The notes under the pieces are model-generated. The model was not told where the DNA came from, made no database searches, and saw nothing but the letters and a program-made list of their open reading frames with translations. The position numbers were made by a program, and so were the translations under genes. Shown piece after piece: positions 2,038-53,641 of a stretch of 64,000 bases of DNA (position 1 is its first letter; every line of letters begins with the position of its first letter). The DNA comes from Escherichia coli (GTDB lineage Bacteria > Pseudomonadota > Gammaproteobacteria > Enterobacterales > Enterobacteriaceae), in assembly GCF_045037415.1 (NCBI RefSeq), contig NZ_CP173438.1; one strand, given 5' to 3'.

Positions 2038-3579
2038 ATGCAACTGAATTCCACCGAAATCAGCGAACTGATCAAGCAGCGCATTGCTCAGTTCAATGTT
2101 GTGAGTGAAGCTCACAACGAAGGTACTATTGTTTCTGTAAGTGACGGTGTTATCCGCATTCACGGCCTGGCCGATTGTATGCAGGGTGAAATGATCTCCC
2201 TGCCGGGTAACCGTTACGCTATCGCACTGAACCTCGAGCGCGACTCTGTAGGTGCGGTTGTTATGGGGCCGTACGCTGACCTTGCCGAAGGCATGAAAGT
2301 TAAGTGTACTGGCCGTATCCTGGAAGTTCCGGTTGGCCGTGGCCTGCTGGGCCGTGTGGTTAACACTCTGGGTGCACCAATCGATGGTAAAGGTCCGCTG
2401 GATCACGACGGCTTCTCTGCTGTAGAAGCAATCGCTCCGGGCGTTATCGAACGTCAGTCCGTAGATCAGCCGGTACAGACCGGTTATAAAGCCGTTGACT
2501 CCATGATCCCAATCGGTCGTGGTCAGCGTGAATTGATCATCGGTGACCGTCAGACCGGTAAAACCGCACTGGCTATCGATGCCATCATCAACCAGCGCGA
2601 TTCCGGTATCAAATGTATCTATGTCGCTATCGGCCAGAAAGCGTCCACCATTTCTAACGTGGTACGTAAACTGGAAGAGCACGGCGCACTGGCTAACACC
2701 ATCGTTGTGGTAGCAACCGCGTCTGAATCCGCTGCACTGCAATACCTGGCACCGTACGCTGGTTGCGCAATGGGTGAATACTTCCGTGACCGCGGTGAAG
2801 ATGCGCTGATCATTTACGATGACCTGTCTAAACAGGCTGTTGCTTACCGTCAGATCTCCCTGCTGCTCCGTCGTCCGCCAGGACGTGAAGCATTCCCGGG
2901 CGACGTATTCTACCTCCACTCTCGTCTGCTGGAGCGTGCTGCGCGTGTTAACGCCGAATACGTTGAAGCTTTCACCAAAGGTGAAGTGAAAGGGAAAACC
3001 GGTTCTCTGACTGCGCTGCCGATTATCGAAACTCAGGCGGGTGACGTTTCTGCGTTCGTTCCGACCAACGTAATCTCCATTACCGATGGTCAGATCTTCC
3101 TGGAAACCAACCTGTTCAACGCCGGTATTCGTCCTGCGGTTAACCCGGGTATTTCCGTATCCCGTGTTGGTGGTGCAGCACAGACCAAGATCATGAAAAA
3201 ACTGTCCGGTGGTATCCGTACCGCTCTGGCACAGTATCGTGAACTGGCAGCGTTCTCTCAGTTTGCATCCGACCTTGACGATGCAACACGTAAGCAGCTT
3301 GACCACGGTCAGAAAGTGACCGAACTGCTGAAGCAGAAACAGTATGCGCCGATGTCTGTTGCGCAACAGTCTCTGGTTCTGTTCGCAGCAGAACGTGGTT
3401 ACCTGGCGGATGTTGAACTGTCGAAAATCGGCAGCTTCGAAGCCGCTCTGTTGGCTTACGTCGACCGTGATCACGCTCCGTTGATGCAAGAGATCAACCA
3501 GACCGGTGGCTACAACGACGAAATCGAAGGCAAGCTGAAAGGCATCCTCGATTCCTTCAAAGCAACCCAATCCTGGTAA
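2038..3579 (+). CDS. atpA: ATP synthase F1 alpha subunit (513 aa)
   Basis: 513-aa ORF with Walker A GDRQTGKT; operon position. Confidence 0.97.
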
Positions 3580-3629
3580 CGTCTGGCGGCTTGCCTTTGG
3601 GCAGGCCGCAAGGCATTGAGGAGAAGCTC

Positions 3630-49850: not shown

Positions 49851-49969
49851 TTCCTGCCACGTAAGCCCCTCATCGGGCACTAAAACAGCAATACAAAAAT
49901 ATAACCCTCTGTAAATTACAGTGCATGGTGAGCGGCTTCGCTATGCCCAAAATCAGGAGAAAGCTCGCT

Positions 49970-51262
49970 ATGGATATTCCCGTTAATGCAGCAAAGCCGG
50001 GGCGTCGGCGTTATCTGACGCTGGTGATGATCTTTATTACGGTGGTCATTTGTTATGTTGACCGTGCTAACCTGGCCGTGGCTTCTGCCCATATTCAGGA
50101 AGAGTTTGGTATTACTAAAGCGCAAATGGGCTATGTATTTTCGGCCTTCGCCTGGCTTTATACGCTATGTCAGATCCCCGGCGGTTGGTTTTTAGATCGC
50201 GTAGGTTCACGCGTGACTTATTTTATTGCGATATTTGGCTGGTCAGTGGCGACGTTATTCCAGGGCTTTGCCACGGGCTTAATGTCATTAATTGGTCTGC
50301 GCGCGATAACCGGTATTTTCGAAGCGCCCGCGTTCCCGACCAATAACCGGATGGTAACCAGTTGGTTCCCGGAACATGAACGCGCTTCTGCCGTTGGTTT
50401 TTATACGTCTGGTCAGTTTGTCGGTCTGGCGTTTCTGACTCCGCTGCTGATCTGGATTCAGGAGATGTTGAGCTGGCACTGGGTGTTCATTGTCACCGGT
50501 GGTATCGGCATTATCTGGTCGCTGATTTGGTTTAAGGTTTATCAGCCGCCGCGTCTGACCAAAGGCATCAGCAAAGCTGAACTGGATTACATTCGTGATG
50601 GCGGCGGTCTGGTGGATGGCGATGCGCCGGTGAAAAAAGAGGCGCGTCAGCCGTTAACAGCCAAAGACTGGAAACTGGTGTTCCATCGTAAACTGATCGG
50701 TGTCTATCTTGGGCAATTTGCGGTGGCTTCTACACTGTGGTTTTTCTTAACCTGGTTCCCGAACTATTTAACCCAGGAAAAAGGAATCACGGCGCTGAAA
50801 GCAGGTTTTATGACCACGGTGCCATTCCTCGCGGCGTTTATTGGCGTCCTGCTCTCTGGCTGGGTCGCGGATCTGCTGGTACGTAAGGGCTTTTCACTGG
50901 GCTTTGCGCGTAAAACGCCGATTATCTGCGGCTTGCTGATCTCCACCTGCATTATGGGTGCGAACTACACCAACGATCCGATGATGATTATGTGCCTGAT
51001 GGCGCTGGCATTCTTCGGCAACGGTTTTGCTTCGATAACCTGGTCGCTGGTCTCTTCTCTGGCACCGATGCGCCTGATTGGTTTAACCGGCGGCGTGTTT
51101 AACTTTGCCGGTGGTCTGGGCGGCATCACCGTTCCGCTGGTGGTGGGGTACCTGGCGCAGGGTTACGGTTTCGCGCCTGCACTGGTTTATATCTCCGCCG
51201 TCGCGTTGATTGGCGCGCTCTCTTACATCCTGCTGGTGGGCGATGTGAAGCGCGTTGGATAA
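49970..51262 (+). CDS. dgoT: D-galactonate transporter, MFS (430 aa)
   Basis: ORF 49925..51262; ATG at 49970 [16 protein letters not shown]… gives 430 aa. Confidence 0.9.
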
Positions 51263-52323
51263 TCTTTCAACTGTGGAATATGTGCCACTCCACTGCGCAT
51301 AATCCACTTTCTTAAAGCCGGTGCGGTCAGGCATCGGCTTTTTACTATCTTGCCGAAGAGTTTTAAACGCAGTTTGCGAGTGGCGCGCCAGTAAGCGGTA
51401 TTGAGCTTCTCTGGCTGCTTCAGTAATACCGAACGCAGAATCTCTGCGCTATCCAGCGCATAGCTAATCCCCTCCAGCGAGCTGGCGCTGATAAATCCCG
51501 CCGCTTCGCCAATCAGAAAGGCGTTGTCCTTGCCGCAGACAAAATCCTGCCAGCGTGAGGGAAACAGCACCGTGCATTTTTCGCTTTTCACCGCCTTACC
51601 AAACTGGAACTGAAAGGCGCTCATTTTCTCTTTTAGCGTCGTGAAACGCGTCTGACCGTCTTTCATGGGATAGGCACCGCCAAAGATAAAATAACCGTCT
51701 TTGCTGATACTCCATGAGTAACAGTCAGTTATCGCATTATCAAAGATGCAGGAGTAGAACGGTACCGGATGTTTCTCTGCGAACCACTGCTGGATGGCGA
51801 CATATTTACGAATCTGATGATCCGGGTAGAGATGTCGCCGCACCATCGAGTTGGCACCATCGGCACCGACCAGATAGCGGGCGGTAATATGCTGCTCCCA
51901 GCCGTCTGCGCGAAAAATGACATGCCATTTATCATCCTCACGCCAGATTTTTCGACACAGGCTGTCGTGGTAAACCTCAACGCTGGCGGGGATCAGCGAT
52001 TTCATCCACAAGTCGAAAGCATGGCGATTAATATTGATATAGCTTCGCTGGTAGTTACGCGTGAGCGATGCGGCGACGTCGACGGTTTTGACGCTGAAAA
52101 TCTGCGGGTTGGCGATGACATCGACAGGAAGCGTCAGTCCATCGCGAATAAAAGATCGCTGCGCGTCCGGTGCCAGAAGACCGCCACAAGGTTTGCTGAA
52201 ACCTTCAGTACCACACTGGTGCTTTTTATCCAGCGCGATCACCTGCATTTTGCCTGCTAACTTTCGCGCCAACGCCGACCCTGCCGGGCCGAGGCCAATA
52301 ATCGCCACGTCGAAATGTTCCAT
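51223..52323 (-). CDS. cbrA: FAD-dependent oxidoreductase CbrA (start uncertain; 366 aa from [15 protein letters not shown])
   Basis: ORF 51223..52344; N-terminal dinucleotide-binding GxGxxG; 3' end overlaps the convergent dgoT 3' end by ~40 bp. Confidence 0.8.
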
Positions 52324-52387
52324 CTTTTCACTCACATTCATCACGATGGCAAAAGACTATTGTCTGAAAGTGAAGTCCTTGTGAAGT

Positions 52388-53638
52388 ATGATGGCGGGAA
52401 CCGTTTTGTATCAGGACCGCGCCATGAAACAGATAACCTTTGCTCCCCGTAATCACCTGCTCACCAATACCAATACCTGGACGCCCGACAGCCAGTGGCT
52501 GGTGTTTGACGTGCGGCCTTCTGGGGCGTCGTTTACCGGCGAGACCATTGAGCGTGTGAATATCCATACCGGCGAGGTCGAGGTTATCTATCGCGCGTCA
52601 CAGGGCGCATACGTCGGCGTGGTGACCGTTCATCCGAAGTCAGAGAAGTATGTCTTCATCCACGGCCCGGAAAATCCTGATGAAACATGGTATTACGACT
52701 TTCATCATCGGCGCGGAGTGATTGTTGAAAGCGGCAAGGTGAGCAATCTCGATGCAATGGATATTACCGCGCCATATACGCCAGGAGCGCTGCGCGGCGG
52801 CAGTCATGTACATGTCTTTAGCCCAAACGGTGAAAGGGTGAGCTTTACCTACAACGACCATGTAATGCATGAACTCGATCCGGCGCTGGATTTGCGAAAT
52901 GTCGGTGTTGCTGCACCGTTTGGCCCGGTCAACGTACAAAAGCAGCATCCGCGTGAATACAGCGGTAGCCACTGGTGCGTGCTGGTAAGTAAAACCACGC
53001 CCACGCCACAGCCTGGCAGTGATGAAATCAATCGTGCTTATGAAGAAGGATGGGTAGGAAATCACGCGCTGGCGTTTATTGGCGACACACTTTCGCCAAA
53101 GGGCGAGAAAGTGCCGGAGCTGTTTATTGTCGAGTTGCCGCAAGATGAAGCTGGCTGGAAAGTGGCAGGTGATGCGCCGTTAAGTGGAACGGAAACAACC
53201 CTGCCCGCGCCACCGCGTGGTGTCGTGCAGCGACGTTTAACCTTTACGCACCATCGGGCTTCTCCGGGATTAGTCAACGTCCCGCGCCACTGGGTGCGCT
53301 GTAATCCGCAGGGTACGCAAATCGCGTTTTTAATGCGTGATGATAACGGCATTGTGCAACTGTGGCTTATCTCGCCACAGGGCGGTGAACCACGCCAGTT
53401 AACCCATAATAAAACGGATATTCAGTCTGCATTTAACTGGCATCCATCAGGCGAATGGCTGGGATTTGTGCTGGATAATCGGATTGCTTGTGCCCATGCG
53501 CAAAGCGGCGAGGTTGAGTATTTAACCGAAAACCACGCCAATCCACCTTCTGCGGACGCCGTGGTTTTCTCGCCGGATGGTCAATGGTTGGCGTGGATGG
53601 AGGACGGTCAGTTGTGGATCACCGAAACTGACCGCTAG
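52388..53638 (+). CDS. yidR: Uncharacterized protein YidR (~415 aa; start uncertain)
   Basis: 416-aa ORF recognised as E. coli YidR. Confidence 0.8.
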   Translation: MMAGTVLYQDRAMKQITFAPRNHLLTNTNTWTPDSQWLVFDVRPSGASFTGETIERVNIHTGEVEVIYRASQGAYVGVVTVHPKSEKYVFIHGPENPDETWYYDFHHRRGVIVESGKVSNLDAMDITAPYTPGALRGGSHVHVFSPNGERVSFTYNDHVMHELDPALDLRNVGVAAPFGPVNVQKQHPREYSGSHWCVLVSKTTPTPQPGSDEINRAYEEGWVGNHALAFIGDTLSPKGEKVPELFIVELPQDEAGWKVAGDAPLSGTETTLPAPPRGVVQRRLTFTHHRASPGLVNVPRHWVRCNPQGTQIAFLMRDDNGIVQLWLISPQGGEPRQLTHNKTDIQSAFNWHPSGEWLGFVLDNRIACAHAQSGEVEYLTENHANPPSADAVVFSPDGQWLAWMEDGQLWITETDR

Positions 53639-53641
53639 CTC

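Follow-up and report, generated by a model that had tools for sequence, protein, structure and literature searches.

The coding sequences of convergent neighbours can run into one another, and 58 such convergent overlaps have been counted in Escherichia coli (Lillo & Krakauer 2007, PMC2174442). CTAA and TTAA are named as two of the tetramers that can accommodate a pair of opposed stop codons, longer convergent overlaps are proposed to originate from the mutation of a stop codon and the read-through that follows it, and the terminators of such convergent genes must sit within coding sequence (PMC2174442). At the level of transcripts, convergent neighbours with overlapping RNAs are described as excludons; for instance, the ExcludonFinder survey of E. 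coli MG1655 counts cbrA-dgoT as one of 165 convergent pairs whose transcripts overlap, and also places it in the core set of convergent excludons that is recovered in at least 50% of 58 RNA-seq data sets (PMC12288877). The neighbouring pairs yidQ-yidR and yidX-yidA stand in the same MG1655 list (PMC12288877). Classical excludons have long antisense 3' or 5' untranslated regions and demonstrated reciprocal repression, whereas cbrA-dgoT, although likewise a pair of convergent neighbours that is named for MG1655, is known by transcript overlap only.

The dgoT-cbrA junction analysed here lies in a window of 64,000 nucleotides, by which is meant the whole stretch of E. coli DNA under analysis. Its overlap is an ordinary member of the known class, and the overlap of the transcripts has already been published for K-12. 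It resembles the overlaps of Lillo and Krakauer in the point mutation of a stop codon, in the read-through into the antisense of the neighbour and in the CTAA or TTAA starting state (PMC2174442). Unlike their fixed overlaps, both states segregate within E. coli and the mutation is synonymous in dgoT, the partner gene; the overlap is therefore still polymorphic here and has not gone to fixation. What is added to prior knowledge is the recognition of the 40-bp overlap as one state, that of read-through, of a stop/Tyr polymorphism. The case matters little in itself; it neatly illustrates the origin and the loss of convergent overlaps through single mutations of a stop codon.

The closest described junction is that of cbrA (yidS) and dgoT in the K-12 RefSeq genome, in which the same genes are convergent and spacer-free, with a nearly identical DgoT and with identical hairpins downstream. 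It differs in the end of cbrA, which in K-12 closes with TAG after 354 residues and leaves a 4-bp CTAA overlap, whereas the window has TAT at this position, a CbrA of 366 residues and an overlap of 40 bp.

Geometry of the junction

Table 1. Features of the dgoT-cbrA junction (window positions)
Feature	Position	Strand	Remarks
dgoT CDS	49925..51262	+	Stop TAA 51260-51262; from the ORF list and the annotation of an identical genome
cbrA CDS, long allele, 366 aa	51223..52323	-	Stop TAA 51223-51225; the mechanical ORF reaches the upstream GTG at 52344
Segment of 40 bp common to the dgoT and cbrA coding sequences	51223..51262		Phase 123:213, third codon positions coincide
12-codon read-through extension of cbrA	51226..51261	-	Antisense to the last 12 dgoT codons
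SNP deciding the cbrA stop	51259		A: dgoT GGA (Gly), cbrA TAT (Tyr); C: dgoT GGC (Gly), cbrA TAG (stop)
First stem-loop 3' of the dgoT stop	51273..51307	+	Followed by UUUCUU; inside the cbrA CDS; -14.3 kcal/mol
Candidate intrinsic terminator of the dgo operon	51314..51350	+	11-bp stem AAAGCCGGUGC / GCAUCGGCUUU, 6-nt loop, U-rich tail; inside cbrA

An earlier note on this DNA had placed the dgoT stop inside the 3' end of the minus-strand cbrA reading frame, and the arrangement is borne out, at 40 bp, by the open reading frames, the raw sequence and the annotation of SK1144, a 100% identical genome (Table 1). NCBI annotates the same two coding sequences with the same 40-bp overlap in SK1144, where cbrA encodes 366 residues (WP_001532050.1) from a start equivalent to window position 52323; since the identical genome is annotated in this way, the overlap is real and already part of public annotation. 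Nissle 1917 and PK8275 are annotated likewise, and the region 50900-51700 is present by megablast in 5,421 of 5,426 complete E. coli genomes.

Comparison with homologues gives a divided answer on the cbrA stop that the earlier note had assumed. The stop at 51223-51225 is real in this genome, but in K-12 (ER2796) and O157:H7 CbrA has 354 residues and ends with TAG at 51259-51261, 36 nt earlier than here, so that cbrA shares only a 4-bp stop/stop CTAA with dgoT in K-12 and with the dgoT remnant in O157:H7. The sole relevant difference in the alignment is position 51259, which is A in the window and C in K-12 and O157; the 40-bp overlap exists here because A instead of C turns the cbrA stop into tyrosine. 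One DgoT accession (WP_000253455.1) is common to K-12 and to the A-allele strains Nissle 1917 and PK8275, and the change at 51259 is thus silent in dgoT.

The first base of the tetramer has two roles, as the wobble base of the last dgoT glycine codon and, on the other strand, as the partner of the third base in the cbrA stop. With a pyrimidine at 51259, cbrA stops (TAG or TAA), and with a purine it reads tyrosine (TAT or TAC); the window has A, and its cbrA frame therefore goes on for 12 codons to the in-frame stop at 51223-51225. The polymorphism is common as well as silent in dgoT, and its reference state is the 4-bp stop/stop overlap, where reference denotes the K-12 form and not necessarily, as between TAT and TAG within Escherichia, the ancestral one. 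The length of the overlap is no greater than chance expectation: the stops in this antisense frame of dgoT are spaced by a median of 15 and a mean of 21 codons, and a read-through of 12 codons is therefore typical.

Allele frequencies in E. coli

The alleles were counted in the same 5,426 complete genomes with queries of 55 nt in which the SNP was centred, so that each 28-nt megablast seed includes position 51259. Base A was matched in 1499 genomes, about 1394 of them at this locus (approximately 26%), and the other 105 matches belong to a second MFS transporter elsewhere in the genome with 90-95% identity. Base C was found in 3977 genomes (approximately 73%), base T in a single genome and base G in none at this locus. 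Among the carriers of A are S88, Nissle 1917, Seattle 1946, ZH193 and one O145 strain, most of these named strains belonging to phylogroup B2. For annotators and users of RNA-seq data, these counts mean that the K-12 CbrA of 354 residues differs from the form encoded in about a quarter of E. coli genomes.

The only E. coli genome of the census with T at 51259 is an MG1655 derivative (match H101, NZ_CP025268.1 3872332-3872386), in which dgoT reads GGT and cbrA reads TAA, giving TTAA as in other genera. The second transporter is part of a second dgoA-dgoD-MFS transporter cluster, which is found elsewhere on the chromosome in approximately 105 E. coli genomes (e.g., L054, NZ_CP083886.1 855661-861705) and adjoins an IS200/IS605 transposase pseudogene and hypT; a similar transporter occurs on a few plasmids (matches H102 and H104-H106). 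The dgo operon is gone from the O157:H7 and O145 lineages, where the final 114 nt of dgoT survive, annotated as a fragment of a pseudogene and still overlapping cbrA (L003, 2993-3106; L053, 2418-2531; equivalent to window positions ~51149-51262). O157 carries the TAG allele with 354 residues, and O145 RM9873 carries the TAT allele with 366.

The junction in other species

A scan of species-representative genomes for CbrA yielded 39 close orthologous loci. The 366-residue read-through form, with the same tail and the 40-bp overlap, is encoded in E. albertii (TAT) and E. whittamii (TAC), and the tail of Pseudocitrobacter vendiensis is identical to that of the window, again with an overlap of 40 bp; Escherichia sp. 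E1V33 has TAG and an overlap of 4 bp. All ten Citrobacter, Enterobacter and Phytobacter representatives with an adjacent dgoT have a 4-bp TTAA stop/stop overlap, and by alignment the TAT, TAG or TAC codon of Escherichia is homologous to the TAA stop that makes this tetramer with the dgoT stop. Buttiauxella agrestis (L020) has dgoT convergent with cbrA and a gap of 62 bp instead of an overlap. Where the two genes are neighbours, the spacer-free convergent layout, with an overlap of either 4 or 40 bp, is seen in 15 of 16 cases (the species representatives and the window), and in about 20 species cbrA stands without a neighbouring dgoT.

A stop-codon mutation predicts such a series of junctions: the tetramer is CTAA in K-12, O157 and Escherichia sp. 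E1V33 and TTAA in ten species, and the read-through forms have TAT or TAC in place of the cbrA stop. The locus is, with high confidence, an overlap produced by stop-codon mutation between convergent genes that have no spacer, with a probably neutral 12-residue tail on CbrA and a predicted dgo terminator inside cbrA.

The Citrobacter, Enterobacter and Phytobacter loci differ from Escherichia in 42 extra nucleotides that encode another CbrA tail (e.g., QDDQPATTSGGLVKDS), a segment that Escherichia is without. This 42-nt segment holds a conserved GC-rich palindrome, CAGCCCGCC-N9-GGCGGGCTG, beside the dgoT stop, at about positions 3555-3600 of the loci L008, L013, L016, L017, L019, L023, L034, L037, L040 and L041. 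One compensatory change in the palindrome, C-G to T-A, is found in C. amalonaticus S646, and a U-tract adjoining it is absent on either strand at the loci of these three genera. In E69, a GTDB species representative labelled E. coli (L007, CP089930.1 ~3540-3604), dgoT is absent downstream and cbrA has a 3' end of another kind, encoding 367 residues with the tail NCAGHYSESRVLYPK; the stem of its internal hairpin has one base changed.

Transcription termination

According to the earlier note, no intergenic terminator could exist between the two genes. There is indeed no spacer, but this argument overlooked terminators embedded in the coding sequence of the neighbour, for which the hairpin and U-tract at 51314-51350 is a candidate. 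The stem-loop itself (51314-51341) has a folding energy of -17.3 kcal/mol in our own scan and a tail of UUUUUACUAUCUU when the 3' U's of the stem are counted; a GC-rich stem-loop is here followed immediately by a U-tract, and the structure is a predicted terminator. The dgoT-sense RNA from 51255 to 51360 (106 nt), which holds both stem-loops, folds with -37.1 kcal/mol and z = -4.9. The 51314-51350 structure is identical in K-12, O157 and O145, and a G.U pair in its stem on the dgoT-sense RNA corresponds to an A.C mismatch on the cbrA-sense RNA. A scan of 50700-51900 for consensus promoters and terminators missed the 51314-51341 hairpin through the placement of its tail window, our own scan recovered it, and on the minus strand the consensus scan found nothing.

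Across 10 taxa, the 51314-51350 hairpin is 86% paired; a covariation analysis of these taxa gave no double-sided changes and did not exceed shuffled alignments, which points to conservation only. Among the orthologue species, the mean energy of the hairpin is -17.6 kcal/mol with an adjacent dgoT and -17.5 kcal/mol without one, and this equality leaves a general link between the hairpin and the adjacency of dgoT unsupported. The structure at 51314-51350 may plausibly be an intrinsic terminator of the dgo operon that is embedded in cbrA codons, and the dgo transcript would probably end at the hairpin and U-tract structures 10-90 nt past the dgoT stop. The supplementary tables of Term-seq studies that were searched hold no entries for the 3' ends of dgoT and cbrA, and the assignment of the dgo terminator is consequently only a prediction.

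In the opposite direction, the cbrA-sense RNA 3' of the cbrA stop has no outstanding fold (z = -1.8), and no cbrA-sense terminator was found within ~600 nt, the nearest weak hairpin with a U-run lying ~600 nt into dgoT; hence, no intrinsic cbrA terminator is proposed. As cbrA has no recognisable intrinsic terminator inside dgoT, its transcripts probably end through the action of Rho, through colliding polymerases or through decay. A literature search for cbrA with bicyclomycin found nothing.

Transcript overlap and antisense regulation

Because there is no intergenic space, each mRNA must carry antisense to the 3' end of the other gene, whichever allele is present. That transcription from each gene runs into the coding region of the other, as had been claimed, follows from this geometry and agrees with the MG1655 RNA-seq survey, in which overlapping cbrA-dgoT transcripts are listed (PMC12288877). 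A functional reading goes further and holds that the overlap has been selected as an excludon, with mutual repression through colliding polymerases or through the cutting of the RNA duplex by RNase III, such that D-galactonate catabolism would be inversely coupled to the CreBC-controlled CbrA. We consider this unlikely, albeit less so than the other alternatives. The place of the pair in the MG1655 convergent core set (PMC12288877) and the spacer-free layout in 15 of the 16 neighbour cases speak for it, as does the strong inducibility of cbrA, a member of the CreBC regulon that is induced by colicin M with a log2 change of 4.3, since antisense transcription into dgoT can then be substantial.

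Against selection of the overlap stand the approximately 20 species that keep cbrA without an adjacent dgoT, the O157 and O145 lineages in which the dgo operon is deleted and cbrA retained, and the 62-bp gap in Buttiauxella. Moreover, coverage-based calls are noisy for weakly expressed genes, and the literature that was searched yielded no reciprocal-expression, 3'-end, dsRNA or RNase III data for cbrA-dgoT. Were a sugar-acid operon and a colicin-resistance gene shown to interfere with each other by antisense transcription, the pair would be one more example of an excludon and would open no new question.

The next convergent pair of the window, nearly as closely packed, lies at 53636-53644, where yidR (plus strand) ends at 53638 and yidQ (minus strand) ends at 53642; the gap between them is 3 nt, and in K-12 it is 1 nt.

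CbrA and its C-terminal tail

CbrA belongs to the NCBIfam equivalog NF008519 (FAD-binding protein / colicin M resistance lipid reductase), against which it scores 689.6 bits at a cut-off of 303. The match runs over residues 1-354 of CbrA and positions 1-354 of the 355 in the profile, leaving residues 355-366 unmatched. An N-terminal GxGxxG dinucleotide-binding motif is present at residues 8-17, and the protein lies above the cut-offs of both Pfam FAD_binding_3 and DAO. Membership of the geranylgeranyl reductase subfamily TIGR02032 was rejected (116.6 bits, below the cut-off of 158.8), CbrA being related to this subfamily and not a member of it. CbrA saturates the alpha-isoprene unit of undecaprenyl-phosphate (C55-P) carriers, and its overproduction in E. 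coli leads to colicin M resistance (PMC8469651). For the 366-residue allele, the reductase and colicin M functions would hold by analogy with the E. coli CbrA described in the literature.

The 12-residue tail is most likely a neutral and disordered by-product of the loss of the stop. In the AlphaFold model of CbrA (alignment of 23 sequences, mean pLDDT 83), the last helix comprises residues 335-344, and residues 354-366 have a pLDDT below 50. Most CbrA homologues carry a tail of 8-30 residues after a conserved AHIP motif, and these C-terminal tails vary in length and are unrelated in sequence. The fact that counts against neutrality is the retention of an identical tail in E. albertii, E. whittamii, Pseudocitrobacter vendiensis and a quarter of E. 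coli; its conservation across these taxa can probably be ascribed to its position antisense to the conserved C-terminus of DgoT.

The same retention is what recommends an adaptive reading, in which the tailed CbrA is a variant with altered stability, membrane association or activity that is kept in certain lineages (many ExPEC-type strains and E. albertii). The frequency of the read-through allele in E. coli and the presence of some tail past AHIP in most homologues are consistent with it. Nevertheless, this reading is improbable: the sequence of the tail is fixed by the conserved DgoT C-terminus encoded on the opposite strand, the tail is of low pLDDT and lies beyond the equivalog profile, the tails of homologues share no sequence with one another, and colicin M resistance was conferred by overproduced CbrA in work that reportedly used the 354-residue K-12 form.

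We hold a bolder proposal to be equally doubtful, namely that the dgoT wobble base is a selectable switch, with lineages carrying a purine making a tailed CbrA of altered stability or colicin M activity, or that a true excludon makes the use of galactonate and the envelope modification by CbrA mutually exclusive. The neutral by-product of a lost stop codon remains the preferred account of the tail.

Finally, an artefact, be it a sequencing error at 51259 or a wrongly called cbrA frame, has nothing in its favour other than the shorter K-12 reference CbrA and is refuted by the allele census, as ~1394 independent complete genomes have A at this position, other Escherichia species have it as well, and the cbrA frame fits the CbrA family model over residues 1-354.

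The dgoT gene

DgoT is a D-galactonate transporter of the MFS type with 445 residues according to PGAP, encoded by the last gene of the dgoK-dgoA-dgoD-dgoT cluster. The assignment agrees with that position after dgoK-dgoA-dgoD and with membership of TIGR00893 (495.1 bits, cut-off 395), and the Pfam MFS_1 score is 222.8 bits. The choice of start concerns the segment 49925-49969 of the window: PGAP begins dgoT at 49925, the curated K-12 DgoT has 430 residues and starts at the methionine of MDIPVN, and the TIGR00893 match begins at residue 38.
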